Shown: positions 2,973 to 45,190 of the stretch, piece after piece
How positions within the stretch are numbered: position 1 is the stretch's first letter
How the letters are laid out: each line of letters begins with the position of its first letter
Assembly (NCBI GenBank): GCA_945861645.1
Contig: CAMAVZ010000001.1
Location: 32,001 to 96,000, forward strand
DNA length: 64,000 nt
DNA from: Opitutus sp. GAS368
GTDB lineage: Bacteria > Verrucomicrobiota > Verrucomicrobiia > Opitutales > Opitutaceae
Reading direction: 5' to 3'
Notes under the pieces: generated by a model
What the model saw: only the letters and a program-made list of their open reading frames with translations
What the model was told of the DNA's origin: nothing
The model's database searches: none
Translations under genes and position numbers: made by a program

Positions 2973-5900
2973 TTAAGTTCGTTTGCTCCAGCGTCGAGAT
3001 TCTTTGATTTCGAGGCGGCGGGCCTCCACCTGCGTTCCCGCCACCGCGGGGTGGTTGCGTAATTCCTGAAAGGCCGCCGCCGACACGCGCCAGTTGAGGC
3101 TACCCGGTGCTTCTGCGAGGGGCATTACGTTTCCGTCGAAAATGAAGCCTAATTTAATGCGCGTATCGCCGCCGGCGGCCATAATCGCGGTTCGGAGTTT
3201 TTGCAAAAAATCGGGCAAGGCGGGATGCTCGGGGTGGAGCAGCCACGTGATCTCACGGATGGCACCGGGCAGGTGCGCATCGAGGGGATAGCATTCCTTG
3301 ATGTTGAGGCGAGCGCCGTCGTTCCCGCGCATGACCGCGCCTAGCAGTACCGCGGGTTGATTTTCTGCTAAATTTTTTCCGTAATTTTCGTAGGCCTCCG
3401 CGTACATATTAACGGCTAAGGTCGCCCGTTTGGTGGCCAAATTAAAAAAAGCCCAGGGACGATTATCGCGGCGGGAAAGTTTTTTCGTAATGCCGGAGAC
3501 AATGCCGCAGAGACGGAATTCGATCCGATCCCCTTCAAGCAGGATTTTTTCTTCGGTGTGCGTGGCGAGCGCCTCGGCGAGACCGAGGTAGGCGTTCATC
3601 GGGTGGCCCGAAATATAAAATCCGAGCAGTTCTTTCTCGAACTGAAGTTTTTCGGCGGGAGTAAAATCGGGATGACGCGCGGTCCCCGCCTGCGCTGCAT
3701 GGGTTTTGCCGACCGGGGCGGGTTCGTTGAGTTCATCCAGAAAAGAATGCTGCCCCGCCGCGAGATCGCGGGCGCGGGCGGCGGAGGCGGCGAGGGCTTC
3801 ATCAATGCGGGCAAACAGCGCGCCCCGGGGCTCGCCTGAGAAATCAAAAGCGCCGGTCTTGATGAGATGTTCCAGCACGCGCTTATTGAGCGCCCGGGCA
3901 TCAACGCGCGCGATAAAATCAGGAAAATCCTTAAAGGGGCCTTGCGCTTCGCGTTCGGCGATAATCTTGAGCGCCGCTTGTTCGCCGACGCCTTTGATGC
4001 CGGCCAGACCAAAGCGGATCGCTCCCGCCGCATTCGCGGAGCCGTCGCCGGCCGGTGCGCGGGCGGGCAGGGGGGTGAACATCGCGCGACTTTCATTTAC
4101 ATCCGGTCCGAGCACGATGAGGCCCATGGCTTCGCATTCGGCGACGAAATGCGCAACTTTTTCGGCATTGCCCAGTTCGGAGCTGAGCATGGCCGCCATG
4201 AATTCAACGGGGTAGTTCGCTTTGAGGTAGCCGGTCTGGTAGCTGAGGACGGCATAAGCAGCGGAGTGCGATTTATTGAAACCGTAACCAGCAAACTTAT
4301 TAAGAATATCGAAGATCGAGTTAGCCGTTTTATCGTCGATGTTGTTTACCCGCTTGGCGCCCGCTACAAAGTTGGCGCGTTCCTTGGCCATGGCCTCAGC
4401 ATCCTTTTTGCCCATCGCGCGCCGGAGCATGTCGGCGCCGCCTAGAGTGTAGCCGGCAATAACCTTGGCGGCTTCCATGACTTGCTCTTGGTAAACCATG
4501 ATGCCGTAAGTTTCGCGGCAAACTTCTTCGAGTAATGGGTGCGGGTAGGTGACCGTACTCGGTTCTTTTTTGCCGCGCACGTAATCGGGAATCCACTCCA
4601 TCGGGCCGGGGCGGTAGAGCGCGATGAGCGCCACAATTTCCTCAATCGAGGAGAGGCTGATCTGTCGGCATAAATTCTGCATACCGCCTGACTCGAGTTG
4701 AAATACGCCGGTGGTGCGGCCGGAGTTCAGGAGGACGTAGGTCTTGGGGTCCTCAAAGCCGATCGTCTCAAGATCGAATGTGGGGTGGGCGGTCCGGCGC
4801 ACGTTATCCACTGCATCAGCTAGCACCGTGAGCGTTTTGAGTCCGAGAAAGTCCATTTTCAACAAGCCCAGCTTGCCGACGGCATTCATGTCGTACTGCA
4901 CGGTGACGTTGCCTTCTTGGAGGGTCAGTGGGACGAATTCCTCCAGGGGCCGATCGGTGATAATGATCCCCGCGGCGTGTTTACCCGTATTGCGGACCAT
5001 GCCTTCCAGGACGAGGGCTTGATCGATAATTTTCTTGGCGAGGGGATTCGAGGTGAATTCGTTGCGTAGTTCCGTCGATTTTTCGAGGGCCGTCTTCAGC
5101 TCGATATTGAGTTCATCGGGAATCATTTTCGCCAAACGATCCGCTTCGGCGTAAGGCAGGTCGTGGACGCGCGAGACATCCCGCATCACCATCTTGGCGC
5201 CGAGGGTGCCGTAGGTGATAATATTGGCGACGCAGTCGTTGCCATATTTCTGGCGGACATAGTCAATAACTTCACCGCGGCGGCGCATGCAGAAATCGAT
5301 ATCGAAGTCGGGGGGCGAGACGCGTTCGGGATTCAGGAAGCGCTCAAACAGTAATTTAAAGCGGAGGGGATCGAGATTGGTGATGCCGAGTAGGTAAGCG
5401 GCGAGGCAACCGGCGCCCGAGCCACGGCCAGGACCGACGGGGATGCCTTGGCGCTTGGCCCAGTCGATAAAATCCCACACGAAGAGGAAATAATCGATGA
5501 ACCCAGTTTTGGTGATGATGGAGAGTTCGTAATCGATCCGCTCAATCAGAATTTGGGCGAGCGCTGGGTCGGGCGCTTTTTTGGGCTTATGGTAATCGAC
5601 GCCGTAGCGGTGTTGCAGCCCGCTAAGGCAGAGACGTTTCAGGTACTCCGCGCGATCGGTCTTCACTTCGGGGGGCAGCGGATACTTGGGGTAGCGTTCG
5701 GAGCCCTTGGGGAAAGGAATCGTGAGATCGCACATCTCGGCCACGAGTTGAGTATTTAATACCGCCGCGGGCATCTCCGCGAACAGTGAGGCCATCTCGT
5801 CGCGCGACTTCAGGTAAAATTGGGTGCCGCTAAATTTCATCCGGTCGGTCTCGGCAATTTTGGAGCCGGTTTGAATGCAGAGCAGCGCATCGTGCGGGCC

Positions 5901-39354: not shown

Positions 39355-40257
39355 CTAAACGGCACTCGCCAAAATATTCGCGTTATTGAGGTGCTCGACG
39401 CCGGTGTACTTCAGCGACTGCTCATCAGCGTGATAACTTGAGCGGACGAGTGGGCCGCTTTCCACGGTGCCGAGACCTGCCGCTAGAGCAAAATCCTTCC
39501 AGTGTTTAAATTCCTCTGGCGTTACCCACCGGTCGATCTTCCAATGCTGCGGCGTTGGTTGGAGGTACTGGCCGAGCGTGAGAATGTCGGTTTTGTCACT
39601 GGCAATATCGCGTAGGCATTGCTCGATCTCGGTGGGCGTCTCGCCGAGGCCGAGCATAATGCCGGTTTTTGTGATGAAGCCGCGGCTCTTGGCGTGGCGG
39701 AGCACGCTGCGGCTGCGATCATAACGCGCCTGCACGCGCACAGGTTTTTGCAGCCGCTCCACCGTTTCAACGTTGTGGTTAAAAATATCCGGTCGGGCAT
39801 CGAGCACGAGATCGACCTGATTAAAGTTTCCTTTGAAATCTGGCACGAGCACCTCAATCGCGCAGTGCGGATTTTTATGCTTGGTCGCGCGAATAGTTGC
39901 CGCCCAGACGCTGGCGCCGCCGTCGGCGAGATCATCGCGGGCCACGGAGGTAATGACGCAATGTTTGAGCCCCATTTTTGCGACGGCATCAGCCACGCGG
40001 GCCGGTTCCCCAAGGTCGAATTCGGTGGGCCGGCCGGTTTGGATCGCGCAGAAATTGCAGGAGCGCGTGCATATATTGCCCAAGATCATGACCGTGGCGG
40101 TGCCGCGCGACCAGCATTCCCCGATGTTGGGGCATTGGGCGCTCTGACATACCGTATGAAGCTTATTTTCCTCCACGAGGCGCCGCGTCGCCTGATAGGC
40201 GGGGCCGGCGGGCAATTTGGCGCGGAGCCAGTCAGGTTTGCGAGTAGGGGGATTCAT
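39355..40257 (-). CDS. lipA: Lipoyl synthase
   Basis: RKPDWL, C-x4-C-x5-C, CTRSCNFC radical-SAM motif, NHNVETV, GQYLQP, RSSY. Confidence 0.98.
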   Translation of the reverse strand: MNPPTRKPDWLRAKLPAGPAYQATRRLVEENKLHTVCQSAQCPNIGECWSRGTATVMILGNICTRSCNFCAIQTGRPTEFDLGEPARVADAVAKMGLKHCVITSVARDDLADGGASVWAATIRATKHKNPHCAIEVLVPDFKGNFNQVDLVLDARPDIFNHNVETVERLQKPVRVQARYDRSRSVLRHAKSRGFITKTGIMLGLGETPTEIEQCLRDIASDKTDILTLGQYLQPTPQHWKIDRWVTPEEFKHWKDFALAAGLGTVESGPLVRSSYHADEQSLKYTGVEHLNNANILASAV

Positions 40258-40883
40258 TTTTCGACCTCCGCCACGACCGGCTCTTCGACCGGTTCGGCGG
40301 TCTCATCCCAGAGGCTCGGGGCTCCACGGCGTTGGGCCAGCCATTCCATGATGCCAGCAAAAAGTCCTGTGAACAGGAGATCGCCGAAAAGCGTGTTACG
40401 GAAAAAGAAAAGGGTGGGCGGATATTCTGGATGGCCAATGGTCAGCGCCTGCCACCAGCCGGCCAAGGTTTTCGCGTAAAAGACATCCCCAGCCCACGAT
40501 TGAGTATTGGTCACAAGGTAGAAAATTATCGCCCCGAGCAGGCCGCCATTGAGCAAACTGAGCCAAGATTTGCGCGAGCGCACCCACGCGCCGATGAGCA
40601 GTGCGCCGCCAAAACAAGCGGTGCGCGCGCCTAGGCCGGCGAGGGACCAGTGGAAGCCGTATTCGCGGGCGTAAAAATGATTGAGGTAAAGATCAGATAA
40701 AGCGAGGGCGCCAAAAGGAAGCGCCCAGCGCCAGCCGGGGCGAAAATAAACCCCGCCACAGAACGCGATCGCCATCACCGGAGAGAAATTAACGAGGGAC
40801 GGGTCAACCGTCGGAGCGAGTCGCGCGAGGGCCGCGAGCACGAGTAAAATAACGGCGATGAGCATGGTAATGAGTTTAGGCAC
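40254..40883 (-). CDS. DUF6580-like / ECF S-component-like membrane protein
   Basis: About 6 TM, NFSPVMAIA..GG, P..AL..SD, FYLVTN..SW, Y..T..G, FFRNTL.GDL; ATGA overlap with lipA. Confidence 0.75.
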   Translation of the reverse strand: MPKLITMLIAVILLVLAALARLAPTVDPSLVNFSPVMAIAFCGGVYFRPGWRWALPFGALALSDLYLNHFYAREYGFHWSLAGLGARTACFGGALLIGAWVRSRKSWLSLLNGGLLGAIIFYLVTNTQSWAGDVFYAKTLAGWWQALTIGHPEYPPTLFFFRNTLFGDLLFTGLFAGIMEWLAQRRGAPSLWDETAEPVEEPVVAEVEK

Positions 40884-41469: not shown

Positions 41470-42039
41470 TTAAGATTTTTCCGCCAATTTACGGGTGCGC
41501 TTTTTCAAAGCTTTTACCAGAAGATCGATGTCGTTTAGGCTTGGCTTGGTCATGCGATCGATGAAGAGCACGCCATTCAGGTGATCAACCTCATGTTGCA
41601 CGCAGCGGCTCAACAGGCCATTGCAATGGAGGGTGTGATCGTGGCCGGCGGTGTCTTGAAATGTTACGGTGATGGTCTCAGGTCGCACCACATCGCCGCG
41701 GATTTTAGGGAAAGACAAACAGCCCTCCTCTGCAATGGCGGTGGGTTCGACCACCGATGTTACCTCGGGATTAACCAACACCAGCGGCATAAACAGATCC
41801 AGTGGCAGATGGGTGCCATCGTAGGTCCACTTAAATTTTGCTTCGACCCCGCTGAGGTCGACGACGCAAAGCTGCAGGGCTTCGCCGATTTGCTGAGCGG
41901 CCAGACCGATCCCTTCGGCCGCGTGCATGGTATCGATCATGACTGCAGCCAAGTGACGCAGGTGAGCGTTGTAGGCGGTGACCTTAGCGCCTTGCTTGCG
42001 CAAAATCGGATGGTTATAGTGAACAATTGGCAGCGACAT
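41470..42039 (-). CDS. def: Peptide deformylase
   Basis: GIGLAAQQIG, EGCLS, QHEVDHLNG. Confidence 0.97.
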   Translation of the reverse strand: MSLPIVHYNHPILRKQGAKVTAYNAHLRHLAAVMIDTMHAAEGIGLAAQQIGEALQLCVVDLSGVEAKFKWTYDGTHLPLDLFMPLVLVNPEVTSVVEPTAIAEEGCLSFPKIRGDVVRPETITVTFQDTAGHDHTLHCNGLLSRCVQHEVDHLNGVLFIDRMTKPSLNDIDLLVKALKKRTRKLAEKS

Positions 42040-42130
42040 TGGTCTGAGTTAAGTTCGCTAGTGTATTTGTTTGTGCCGGCGCGCGGCAAATAAATTTGTT
42101 TCCGCCAGCTTAACCGTTATGTCTTCCGCC

Positions 42131-43789
42131 ATGCCCATCAATTCCCGACCGACCGACGCCCGGGCTGCTCCCTGGCAGCTCTGGCTGGGGTTGGGCGTAG
42201 GGCTGTTGGCCGTGGCTTGGCTACTCCCAGTCAATGTTAAGTCCCTCAATGTCGCGCTGCTTCGTGAGGCCGGCCGGGGGACCCAAAGCGTCGCAGGTTT
42301 TGGGCGCGACTTGCTCGAATTAGATAAACCAGGCCCCGCCGCGCTGGTGTTAGCCGCGGCGAAAAAAACGGGCGATAGTGGCGCGGGCGCTCTCGAGATG
42401 ATCGCCGATAATTTTTCCCGTCAGCATCGCGAGATGATGCCATGGGGAGGATGGGATGTCGCGCTGGAGCCCTTGCTGGCCAACCGCAACGCCGCCGCTT
42501 CGGCGGCTTCGCAGCCGGTGCTCAAGTTTATGATCTTGCCGCAGGCGCGCGATAATCTCCGGCGTTATCTGACCGTCTCGCGCTTACCTGCGGTCCAAAC
42601 TTTGCTGAAGACGGCAGCGCTGACTACGACGCAGCGCTTTGTGCCAGCTAATCGTCCGGGCGGACAACCGTTGGAAGCGGTTATCTTACTGACCGCTTAT
42701 CTTTGGCAGACCGAGCATCTCTCGGCTCCCCTGCAGCGTGAGGTGCGGGCTCTCGCAGAACGAGCGGTCCAGTCAGGGCAGATGGGCGAGTTGGAGGATT
42801 TTTATTTGGATATTCTCACGCTGGGTCAGCGGCTGAATTGGATTCAGTTAGCGGAGCTTTTGCGCACGACGGGCAGTCTCGGGACGGTGGGGCAATTTGC
42901 GCATTTGACGCGCATGGCCCCGGAGCATCTGCCGATTATTTATACGGCGGCCTTGATGGCTAAATCCGCCGACACCGTCGCGCATTATCTCATTACCTAT
43001 GGCCGACGCGGCCTCGATAGCTTGCAACTGGCGCTTTCCTTTGGCGCAGGAGCGGTGGTGCAACTGGTGCAACGGCAAGTGCCAGTTACGAGTGGGGCGG
43101 GACTAGAATTTGAATGGGGGGCCGCCTTTGCCCTGCGTCATCCTGAGCTCGCGCTCTTGGCAAAATACGCGGCTTTTCTGGGAGGCATCTTTCTGCTGCT
43201 CCGGGCCGTCGATACGGGGCTTTTTTTTACGGTGGAAGCAACCTTGCGCAGTGCTTTTCCCCGCATGAGTAGCGGCCTGATTGCGATCATTCTCACTTTT
43301 ATCTTTTTTGTCTTTTCGGAGCCTTTTTTGTTAAAGGCTGCTCCCGTTTCTGATTATAAAATTAAACTCACTATTCCAGTTATCGGCGCCTTGGCGGCGC
43401 CGGTGACGAGCGAAGTAACCACCCCCACCACCATGGACCTCTCCACCATTCTCTCGATCACGCTGTTCGCCTGCTTGCAGGTCGGCATGTACGTTATCTG
43501 TTTGCTGAAAATCGCCGAGATCGACCGGCAGACCTTGGTCGCCACCGCTAAGCTCCGCCTCATGGAGAATGAGGAAAATCTGTTTGATGGGGGACTCTAC
43601 CTGGGCATTGCTGGCACCGCGACCGCGCTGGTGCTGCAAGTCCTCGGCGTGATCGATGCGAACTTATTAGCGGCTTATTCCTCCAACTTGTTTGGCATTG
43701 TCTGCGTGGCCCTCGTGAAGATCCGTCACGTGCGACCCTATAAGCGGAAACTGATTGTGGAATCACTAGGCACCGCCGCGACGGTTTAA
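42131..43789 (+). CDS. Multi-pass membrane protein with C-terminal MotA/TolQ/ExbB-like proton-channel region (putative)
   Basis: N-terminal TM, large helical soluble region, further TMs, then YLGIAGT and LLAAYSSNLFGI helices resembling the GLxGT and ALxTTxxG motifs. Start could be 42119. Confidence 0.6.
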   Translation: MPINSRPTDARAAPWQLWLGLGVGLLAVAWLLPVNVKSLNVALLREAGRGTQSVAGFGRDLLELDKPGPAALVLAAAKKTGDSGAGALEMIADNFSRQHREMMPWGGWDVALEPLLANRNAAASAASQPVLKFMILPQARDNLRRYLTVSRLPAVQTLLKTAALTTTQRFVPANRPGGQPLEAVILLTAYLWQTEHLSAPLQREVRALAERAVQSGQMGELEDFYLDILTLGQRLNWIQLAELLRTTGSLGTVGQFAHLTRMAPEHLPIIYTAALMAKSADTVAHYLITYGRRGLDSLQLALSFGAGAVVQLVQRQVPVTSGAGLEFEWGAAFALRHPELALLAKYAAFLGGIFLLLRAVDTGLFFTVEATLRSAFPRMSSGLIAIILTFIFFVFSEPFLLKAAPVSDYKIKLTIPVIGALAAPVTSEVTTPTTMDLSTILSITLFACLQVGMYVICLLKIAEIDRQTLVATAKLRLMENEENLFDGGLYLGIAGTATALVLQVLGVIDANLLAAYSSNLFGIVCVALVKIRHVRPYKRKLIVESLGTAATV

Positions 43790-43801
43790 GGAGACTGCGC
43801 G

Positions 43802-45190
43802 ATGAACAAGACGCTCTTATTAATTATGTGCGACTTTATGTTGCTCAATCTCCTCGCGCTCACGCGCTGGGAGAAAGCGGAGCCATCGCATACGCAGCTC
43901 GAGTCCGCGGCCCCGCGCTCGGCCGTCAATGCGCCCGCCATCAATGCGGACATGGTCGAGTTGATGCGCCTCACGCTCGAGGATGAAAAAACTGCCCGCG
44001 ACGCACTCGCCACGCAGCTAGCCGCCACGCGGGGTTCTTTGTCAGAGCGCGAGAAAAATCTGGCCGCGCTGCAACAGCAGAAGGGCCAGCTTGAAAATTC
44101 CTTGGCGGCCAACCAATCGAGTACCCGCGAGTTAGAGAAACGCTTTACGGCCACCGCGCAGGAGGCGGCCTTGTCCAAGGAACAGTTGGCCAAAATGCAG
44201 CGCGAACTGGAAGAGCGTCGCGCTGAGGCGGAGCGACAGAAAGCTGAGTTGGTGCGCTTGGATCGGCAAAATGCCGAAGCCCGGCAGCGGATTGAAAATC
44301 TTAATGTCGCCGTCCGCGTGGCCGAGCAGGAAAAAAAGTTGATTAGTCAAAACCTGACCGAGGCCAAACAGCAGGTGGAAGTCGAGCGACTCGAGCGCGC
44401 TAAAGTGCAGGAGCAAACTTCGCAGCTGACGCTGGGCGTGGGTCAATTGGCCCAACAATCAGGCGCCCTGAGTCAGGAGATTCGCAGTAATCGGCCCATT
44501 AATCCCAATATTATCTTCAGCGAATTTTTGGCGAATCGGGTGCAATCAAAATTTATTGCGCGCCGGCCAGGATTATTTAGCCCGACCGTGAAGGAGCATA
44601 ACACGCAAACGATTTTGGTGAGCGATGGTCAGCAAATTTATGCGCTGATGCATTTGAGCGACACGCCTTTTGTGTTGGGAGAAATTGCGATCGATTATGA
44701 TCAAGTAGCGGGTCGGCTGACCCGGGGTTCCTTCAGCGCGCCCTTGGCTGAGCTGCATTTTCTACGCTTGGATCCGCGCGTGATGGTGGCGCCGATCGAT
44801 GCCTCGCTGGCGGCCCTGATGGGTGGGAAAATCTATCGGCTGGCAGCGGAGCCTTTTAAATTTCCCGAAGCTGTCTTGGTGCGCGCGGATGACGGTCGTT
44901 ACGGCGAGACGCCCTTCCGCATTGACGCAGCTAACGCCAGCTACGTGAAGCTCGACAACCGAATTACCACGCGACTCTTCGGGGAAATCGCGCCCAAGCG
45001 CGGCGATCTCGTTTTTAGCAAAACGGGCGATCTGATTGGCATGATGGTCAACAGCGACTACTGCGCCGTGCTCGGTAATTTTACGGCCGCTTACATTCTG
45101 AAGACCGGAGAAAATCCTGAACCAAAGACGAGCGTCGTTTTATCGGAAGCATATACCCGGCTCCAGCGGTTACCTTTTAAATTACAGTGA
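43802..45190 (+). CDS. Single-TM protein with MotB/ExbD-like Asp, long coiled coil and degenerate trypsin-like C-terminal domain (putative)
   Basis: AGGAG RBS; N-terminal LLLIMCDFMLLNLLAL; heptad-rich E/Q/K/R region; C-terminal RGDLVFSKTGDLIGMMV. Confidence 0.6.
   Translation: MNKTLLLIMCDFMLLNLLALTRWEKAEPSHTQLESAAPRSAVNAPAINADMVELMRLTLEDEKTARDALATQLAATRGSLSEREKNLAALQQQKGQLENSLAANQSSTRELEKRFTATAQEAALSKEQLAKMQRELEERRAEAERQKAELVRLDRQNAEARQRIENLNVAVRVAEQEKKLISQNLTEAKQQVEVERLERAKVQEQTSQLTLGVGQLAQQSGALSQEIRSNRPINPNIIFSEFLANRVQSKFIARRPGLFSPTVKEHNTQTILVSDGQQIYALMHLSDTPFVLGEIAIDYDQVAGRLTRGSFSAPLAELHFLRLDPRVMVAPIDASLAALMGGKIYRLAAEPFKFPEAVLVRADDGRYGETPFRIDAANASYVKLDNRITTRLFGEIAPKRGDLVFSKTGDLIGMMVNSDYCAVLGNFTAAYILKTGENPEPKTSVVLSEAYTRLQRLPFKLQ

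Follow-up and report, generated by a model that had tools for sequence, protein, structure and literature searches.

A conserved two-gene membrane module of Opitutales and Lentisphaeria with an invariant intramembrane aspartate and a pseudo-protease head, considered as a candidate ion-driven envelope machine

The stretch of 64,000 nt from Opitutus sp. GAS368 (assembly GCA_945861645.1, contig CAMAVZ010000001.1; hereafter the window, to which all positions refer) carries on its forward strand two adjacent genes, A (42131-43789, 552 aa from ATG) and B (43802-45190, 462 aa), whose products, as deduced from the open reading frames (ORFs) and their translations, are a polytopic and a bitopic inner-membrane protein, respectively. 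The pair constitutes, on solid grounds, a conserved single-copy two-gene inner-membrane module, composed of a protein with a four-helix core and a partner with an invariant buried aspartate, a helical stalk and a pseudo-protease head. The chances are even, in our estimate, that A and B form an ion-driven stator-type complex in which B itself is both the axle and the periplasmic force transducer; this reading is drawn from the architecture, the invariant Asp, the register of the membrane motifs and the structural matches of A to ZorA and MotA.

The two genes are co-oriented and separated by 12 nt, and the TAA stop codon of A (43787-43789) shares its last base with the AGGAG ribosome-binding site of B (43789-43793), which stands 8 nt ahead of the ATG at 43802. 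This arrangement, confirmed by the ORFs and by direct inspection, had been described in an earlier sequence-only reading of the window, in which the genes were taken for a divergent MotA/ExbB-like plus MotB/ExbD-like motor pair. The start of A may also be placed at the in-frame ATG 42119, giving 556 aa, the length of its closest database homolog (P0003), or at TTG 42071, from which the frame is open; the Met of 42131 is the start in most of the aligned homologs. The co-occurrence of the two genes, expected from the same reading, was found in every locus examined. Thus, B lies directly downstream of A on the same strand in 20 of 20 fetched loci, comprising ten long forms of A from Opitutales, two long forms from another family and eight short forms, with a gap of -25 to +134 nt by ORF calls. 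In 44 of 44 further loci (two sets of 29 and 15, overlapping with the former and together covering 49 distinct genomes besides that of the window), a B with the membrane-helix Asp follows A directly, 40 of them being recognised by the ORF pass and the other four by motif search. Clustering of the ORFs from 21 extended loci revealed no third gene common phylum-wide beyond A and B.

The AlphaFold2 (AF2) model of A (predicted local distance difference test, pLDDT, 88.7; predicted template-modelling score 0.82) and a hydropathy scan agree on six membrane helices at approximately 17-36, 338-364, 376-401, 437-458, 487-508 and 512-531. Only the four-helix core, residues 376-552 (43256-43786), is common to the long and short forms of the protein. 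It consists of the helix 376-401, a low-confidence, Pro/Thr-rich loop 402-436, the helix 437-458, a short cytoplasmic helix 459-486 that ends in 'ENEENLFD', the helix 487-508 with 'LYLGIAGT', the helix 512-531 with 'AAYSS..GI' and a basic tail, the chain ending about 20 residues past the last helix. The order of a membrane helix, a short soluble helix and two membrane helices, as given by the sequence-only reading, was therefore supported by both the scan and the model, and the motifs it quoted are all in place: LYLGIAGTATAL at residues 489-500 and LLAAYSSNLFGI at 512-523 of A, with the basic tail KIRHVRPYKRKL after them, and 'IMCDFMLL' at residues 8-15 of B. In an alignment of 21 cores, Q450, D486, L489, Y490, G492, A515, Y516, G522, I523 and L541 are invariant and N480, F485, G495, T496, S518 and P536 are kept in at least 90%; these residues concentrate in the patterns 'ENxExxFDxxLYxGLxGT' and 'AYSSTxxGI'. 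In the known motors, the Gly-Thr and Ser/Thr positions of the last two helices line the ion path.

By comparison of the homologs, the N-terminal ~375 residues of A are an extension specific to certain lineages, outside the conserved unit. The extension comprises the membrane helix 1 (42179-42238, residues 17-36 by the hydropathy scan, 13-31 in the AF2 model), an all-helical domain of about 300 aa (42239-43141, residues 37-337, pLDDT mostly above 90) and the membrane helix 2 (43142-43222, residues 338-364), the last two being found in the long form only; the helical domain is missing from the short forms of 170-210 aa. The domain 37-337 is predicted to be periplasmic because the number of helices is even and the basic C-terminal tail would lie inside. 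No known fold was found for it in a cursory structural comparison that gave only poor matches, such as NCX_Mj (Z 8, rmsd, the root-mean-square deviation, 9). The extra N-terminal part of about 430 residues assumed earlier is thus real, measuring ~375 residues to the four-helix core or ~436 to the last three helices and holding three further membrane helices besides the helical domain, but it lies outside the conserved machine, the short forms being devoid of it.

The product of B is anchored by a single membrane helix (residues 3-21, 43808-43864; hydropathy scan and AF2), with only about two residues on the cytoplasmic side and with Asp11 (43832-43834) near the cytoplasmic end of the helix, within the 'IMCDFMLL' motif. 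In the AF2 model (pLDDT 79.9), the helix is followed by a disordered linker 22-43, two long helices 44-121 and 126-229, and a beta-rich domain 232-455. The conservation of the membrane Asp had been set beforehand as a test of the motor proposal, and this residue proved invariant in all 21 aligned sequences, whose identity goes down to 14%, and was present in all 44 further loci; M1, D11, G401, D402 and G413 are the only invariant residues of B. The helices 44-121 and 126-229 form a stalk of about 185 residues (43931-44488) broken at 122-125, which replaces the coiled coil of about 170 residues estimated previously. By sequence, B gives coiled-coil matches only, both in the family libraries and for its profile against the PDB sequences, and the lengths of 440-614 aa in the 21 sequences vary mostly in the stalk. 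An extended stalk of about 25 nm, also envisaged earlier, is possible; the monomer model instead folds the stalk back on itself and resembles antiparallel stalks such as that of dynein (8i3j_A, Z 12.3, rmsd 1.7 over 142 residues), so that an extended parallel dimer is not established. The break coincides with the motif '(E/D)(A/S)x(L/V)S(K/R)E(Q/R)L' at about residues 118-128, conserved within Opitutales, and this coincidence hints at a real hinge and not a modelling artefact.

The C-terminal domain of B (residues 232-455, 44495-45166) has the double beta-barrel fold of trypsin/HtrA-like proteases without the catalytic serine. Foldseek retrieved 213 PDB chains at E<=0.001, with Deg2 (4fln_A, E 3.6e-6) ranking first, and the VIA comparison gave the astrovirus protease 2w5e_A (Z 12.6), the S1C domain of the anti-sigma factor RsgI9 (7sjy_B, Z 12.3), Deg1 (3qo6_A, Z 11.7) and the Umb1 particle chain 8w20_C (Z 10.7); the RsgI9 S1C-NTF2 bi-domain was also matched by Foldseek at E 5.4e-5. 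The 'GDSGG' motif of serine proteases bears the nucleophile Ser. In B, the conserved 'GD...G...G' motif (residues 401-413, 45002-45040; alignment of 21 sequences) has Leu, Ile, Phe or Tyr after the 'GD', where this Ser is expected, and no His or Ser of the head is conserved in the 21 sequences, with the triad not mapped by superposition. The head is, therefore, most likely a dead protease serving for binding. The globular domain foreseen at the terminus of B is thus present and can be specified in its fold, and the periplasmic part, made of the helical stalk and the trypsin-like domain, contains neither an OmpA-like nor an ExbD periplasmic domain, in agreement with the sequence-only reading.

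Homologs of both proteins are numerous. A first search, limited to 8,000 scored candidates, yielded more than 1,400 homologs of A, every named one being designated hypothetical, and more than 1,300 of B (E<=0.001). Close homologs of either protein for which a source is stated are assigned to Lacunisphaera, Opitutaceae or Opitutae bacterium, likewise as 'hypothetical protein'. When 1.84 billion representatives were searched exhaustively, A gave 551 clusters (50% identity) at E<=0.001. Searching the ESM Atlas with A 376-552 returned only nameless Verrucomicrobiota clusters, and the short form found no usable match among the named clusters. In 201 genomes of the phylum, A has a match in 72, being full-length within Opitutales, the order of the window, whereas in other families the matching ORFs of 170-210 aa align only to approximately residues 376-552. 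The core profile built from the 21 sequences found one copy per genome in 72 genomes at 1e-40 to 1e-64, a marginal one at 1.1e-4 and none in 128 of the 201. The family of A is, consequently, sharply bounded and patchy, and since it occurs in only 73 of the 201 sampled genomes, it does not count among the core features of the phylum, contrary to the core lineage-specific machine supposed earlier. Carriers of the short form are Victivallis, Victivallaceae and Lentisphaeria, among them the cultured strain Victivallis vadensis DSM 14823.

In a long-read metagenome-assembled genome of Lentisphaeria (locus L115, ~nt 3568), the B homolog begins with GTG and its frame closes after 245 aa, as compared with about 600 in relatives, and the ORF called for A, with 140 aa, is short as well; these could be frameshifts of the long-read assembly or a decayed copy. 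One in-frame TGA lies within the core match of a long-form genome (G026, contig C21, 17952-18458).

In the mechanism that we favour, A and B would form one inner-membrane complex acting like the stator units MotAB, ExbBD, TolQR and ZorAB. Several four-helix cores of A would encircle the membrane helices of a B dimer, and a proton or another ion would bind to and leave the buried Asp11 of B beside the conserved Thr496 and Ser518 of A, its binding and release moving B relative to A. Since hardly any of the mass of A is cytoplasmic, the work would take place on the periplasmic side, where B would itself act as the transducer, leading from the membrane helix through the ~185-residue stalk to the dead trypsin-like head, which would take hold of a partner in the periplasm, the peptidoglycan or the outer membrane. 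The helical N-terminal domain of about 300 aa in the long forms would have been added later in certain lineages, perhaps as a collar or anchor in the periplasm. The ion coupling, the stoichiometry, the movement, the topology of the N-terminal domain and the partner are what we infer here from the anatomy and conservation described above. The most specific version of this mechanism, according to which the pair represents a further family of ion-driven envelope motors of the 5:2 type, hitherto undescribed and restricted to bacteria of the PVC group (Planctomycetes-Verrucomicrobia-Chlamydiae; the carriers being Opitutales, Victivallaceae/Lentisphaeria and a few other families), with the smallest A subunit known, made of four helices and next to no cytoplasmic domain, and with a B that combines the ion-binding axle, the periplasm-spanning shaft and the dead-protease gripping head as a one-piece ExbD plus TonB, is held tentatively, at somewhat less than an even chance.

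Kinship of A with MotA/ExbB is not demonstrable by sequence, and a series of results weighs against the stator-type reading. A has no match in Pfam (even at E<=10), NCBIfam or PADLOC, and nothing relevant was obtained for the short forms. The MotA/ExbB model PF01618, with a curated cut-off of 22.9 bits, touches one of the 21 A cores at E 0.032, beside equally weak unrelated families, and recovers three ordinary MotA/ExbB genes located elsewhere in the Opitutus genome (89-103 bits) but not A. The PADLOC models of ZorA and ZorB match neither A or B nor any of the 21 A cores, and the profile of A found no MotA, ExbB, TolQ or ZorA chain among the PDB sequences. In a more demanding test, a hidden Markov model (HMM) of the A core was run over the complete set of 5,998 ORFs from the genome; of the three canonical genes, one ranked 8th (E 10) and the other two stayed outside the top 15, A being likewise outside the top 15 of the canonical HMM, and the core profile did not reach any canonical MotA/ExbB gene at E<=0.001 in the 201 genomes. 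The aligned N-terminus of B (residues 1-30) gave in hhalign a probability of 0.1% against 18 canonical ExbD/TolR, with a higher score for the reversed control, and B has no match to the ExbD/TolR (PF02472) or MotB families at E<=10. The loop between the first and the second helix of the three-helix unit of A counts about 27 residues, where the canonical proteins have a large cytoplasmic domain. The hhalign comparison of A with 30 canonical MotA/ExbB proteins of related genomes reached a probability of 1.4% with the whole core and 13.5% with the last two helices. In the latter alignment (E 0.0021, score 23.4), 'Y.GL.GTV' falls in register on 'LLGLLGTV' and, at low stringency, 'AAYSST..GI' of A falls on 'eALitT.aGL' of the canonical consensus, with the order of the motifs kept. 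The score lies far above those of 60 column shuffles (10.1 +/- 1.8, maximum 15.4) and exceeds the 11.1 of the reversed alignment, the shuffle control being lenient because shuffling destroys the hydrophobic runs.

The structural likeness of the modelled A to ZorA and MotA is suggestive only. The structure was compared with 48,161 PDB representatives, with a second look over the Foldseek top 1,000. For residues 434-552, ZorA chains are the recurring membrane-protein matches, including 8qyh_A (Z 9.6, rmsd 4.4, 116 aligned residues, 14% identity), 8qyk_A (Z 8.3), 8qyd_A (Z 8.2) and 8vvn_C (Z 8.2), along with 8vvi_F (Z 9.2), a chain of 99 residues from a type II ZorAB complex, whose subunit identity is not established; MotA (8ucs_G) was matched to residues 447-552 in the second look (Z 7.2, rmsd 3.6, 102 aligned). 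Against these stand generic three-helix bundles with equal or higher scores, such as RRF (Z 11.3), spectrin repeats and designed bundles (Z 8-10), and the tool's own warning that for helix bundles a Z below ~13 may mean a mere common arrangement. No ExbB, TolQ or GldL chain was among the 50 matches listed for A, and Foldseek with whole A gave nothing in the PDB at E<=0.001. No GldL or GldM chain was among the matches listed for A or B, no test having been aimed at them, so that similarity is not excluded thereby. The prediction of a complex of four A(376-552) and two B(1-45) chains scored 0.06 with a mark of 0.32, without controls, and speaks neither for nor against binding. In sum, the MotA/ExbB-like nature ascribed to A on first sight, and with it the 5:2 motor, is weakly supported: the motif register and the ZorA/MotA matches speak for it, and the absent profile match and the equal or higher scores of generic bundles against it.

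The failure of every similarity search to join A or B significantly to a motor family is what would be expected from a passive membrane complex, in which B would be an anchored scaffold or adaptor with its stalk and dead-protease head binding an envelope partner, perhaps regulating enzymes of the cell wall as EnvC does together with FtsX, and A would be its membrane partner or chaperone. The buried Asp would then serve helix-helix assembly, being hydrogen-bonded to Q450, Y454, Y490 or Y516 of A and taking no part in ion transfer, and the conserved polar residues in the membrane helices of A could indeed pair with it. The almost complete lack of cytoplasmic mass in A agrees with this explanation, as do the solved matches of the head, RsgI9 S1C and Umb1, where pseudo-protease domains are binding or sensor modules. 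It gives no reason, however, for the strongest conservation in A to fall on a pair of helices rich in Gly, Thr and Ser that align in register with the MotA/ExbB motifs of the ion path, or for the lone membrane helix of B to keep an acidic residue down to 14% identity; moreover, neither an ATPase nor another energy source is encoded beside the pair, and a regulator of the FtsEX-EnvC type would, therefore, be without a driver. We regard the passive complex as the main rival, though less likely than not. The same head matches to RsgI9, whose S1C domain is thought to sense, could be taken as a sign of a transmembrane signalling pair, with the head of B perceiving an envelope cue and A passing the signal to the cytoplasm. 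Such a pair is highly improbable: the cytoplasmic portion of B is limited to about two terminal residues, that of A to the 27-residue helix and the 20-residue tail with no recognisable output domain, and neither a sigma factor nor a regulator is a conserved neighbour of the genes.

GldLM/PorLM show that the architecture of the MotA/ExbB superfamily may exist without sequence similarity to it, and an ion-coupled machine that is analogous and not homologous to this superfamily, possibly with a different stoichiometry, would account for the failure of every sequence test for homology, for the minimal cytoplasmic loop of A and for the sharp limits of its family, with 72 strong and one marginal match, nothing between them and the canonical genes untouched in the 201 genomes. 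The order and register of the motifs shared with MotA/ExbB and the ZorA/MotA structural matches fit divergence better, neither being strong, and we consider independent origin improbable. The stator-type complex set out above thus remains our favoured reading.

Among the known systems, ExbB-ExbD(-TonB) and TolQ-TolR(-TolA) (PF01618, PF02472) share with the pair the gene order, a polytopic A whose last two helices carry 'GLxGT' and 'A..(S/T)T..G' in the same order, a bitopic B whose helix bears, close to the cytoplasmic end, an Asp that looks essential, and work that is presumably delivered across the periplasm. They differ in that A has its cytoplasmic domain cut to ~27 residues and no significant sequence or profile match, that B has a long helical stalk and a trypsin-like head in place of the ExbD/TolR periplasmic domain, and that ExbBD/TolQR pass the work to a separate TonB or TolA, no such gene being found beside A and B. 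MotA-MotB are alike in the four-helix core, both ends of which are predicted to be cytoplasmic in the short form, and in the Asp of the B helix, and unlike in the large rotor-contacting cytoplasmic loop of MotA, absent from A, and in the OmpA-like peptidoglycan-binding domain of MotB, absent from B. ZorA-ZorB, which provide the best recurring membrane-protein structural matches to the core, are a 5:2 motor with a very long helical appendage, just as A/B has a long stalk; however, the Zorya tail is on ZorA and cytoplasmic, while the stalk here is on B and periplasmic, and the pair is present once, among housekeeping genes and outside any defence island. In agreement with the sequence-only reading, the neighbourhood of the pair contains no ton, tol, flagellar or Zorya genes, zorC/D/E included. 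HtrA, DegS and Deg1 (S1C) proteases and the pseudo-protease S1C of RsgI9 share only the fold of B 232-455; unlike the HtrA-type proteases, B has no sequence match to them, no conserved His or Ser and no PDZ domain.

The working model closest to that proposed for B is GldL-GldM/PorL-PorM, a 5:2 motor whose single-helix subunit spans the periplasm as a dimer and presumably transmits rotation to the outer membrane. It differs by a charged pair arranged otherwise, with Arg in GldM and Glu in GldL, and by the periplasmic part of GldM, which is a chain of globular domains.

The closest published idea, and a precedent in favour of the reading given here, is the prediction of the TPH-vWA transducers with TolQ-like pentamers (Mol Biol Evol 2025, PMC12204202), in which the pentamer takes up the TolR/ExbD-like trans-pore helix (TPH) of a partner together with its conserved Asp. 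The partner itself bears the periplasmic effector domain, and the systems are reported in Proteobacteria and Verrucomicrobia (PMC12204202). There, the gene of the A subunit is recognisably tolQ-like and a vWA domain serves as the effector (PMC12204202), whereas A here escapes all MotA/ExbB models and the effector of B is a dead trypsin-like domain on a long stalk. The passages of a 2025 survey of MotAB homologs give no sign of the A/B family (PMC12505986), and in a full-text search of the stator and motor literature no title or opening of an abstract describes it; supplements might list such genes.

Each new stator-type family has revealed a new way of spending the proton gradient in the envelope. 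If A and B are such a machine, they would show how small a motor of this kind can be, provide a natural example of a transducer fused to its axle and direct attention to a so far unknown process in the envelope of Verrucomicrobiota and Lentisphaeria, groups with poorly known envelope biology. To our knowledge, only a handful of ion-driven stator-type motor families exist, namely, the flagellar, Ton/Tol, gliding/type IX and Zorya ones. The idea is testable because one of the carriers, V. vadensis DSM 14823, is cultured. Should the pair be no motor, its two genes, widely distributed and always found together, would still encode a membrane complex with a pseudo-protease head that has escaped annotation entirely.

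Contigs from four metatranscriptome libraries of three studies, labelled freshwater or lake, lie on both A and B. One of 500 nt with a single difference (43385-43884) bridges the A/B junction, and one of 3,173 nt from a relative of ~95% identity spans 41567-44739. Such contigs do not prove transcription, since DNA can be present, according to the warning of the tool, and the long contig, crossing the divergent spacer between def and A, fits that warning. Within single runs, parts of A and B have no contig cover, which proves nothing.

The genomic surroundings vary by lineage, with def in Opitutaceae and with lptF/G, a kinase-FGE protein and an ABC-F protein in Victivallaceae. By Pfam matches, the upstream neighbours in the window, all on the opposite strand, encode a PhoD-like phosphatase, a radical-SAM protein, a DUF6580 protein, a cobalamin adenosyltransferase and a peptide deformylase (def); downstream follow a 3-keto-disaccharide hydrolase family protein and a tRNA methyltransferase (mnmA-type) on the opposite strand and then, on the strand of the pair, a phosphodiesterase/sulfatase-like protein and an alpha-amylase-family protein. 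In three short-form loci of Victivallaceae (L095-L097; e.g. L096, 5758-14049), an lptF/lptG-family permease lies upstream on the opposite strand, and an 886-aa fusion of a Ser/Thr kinase domain with an FGE-sulfatase domain and then an ABC-F type ATPase lie downstream; this synteny is local, none of it being seen in Opitutales. The DUF6580 protein of the window (E 6.5e-34; 40257-40883, reverse strand, 209 aa) is a multi-pass membrane protein encoded between the radical-SAM gene, lipoyl-synthase-like, and the cobalamin adenosyltransferase gene. The GC skew is positive in all 2-kb bins of positions 1-64000 and the cumulative skew climbs steadily, which places the window within one replichore.

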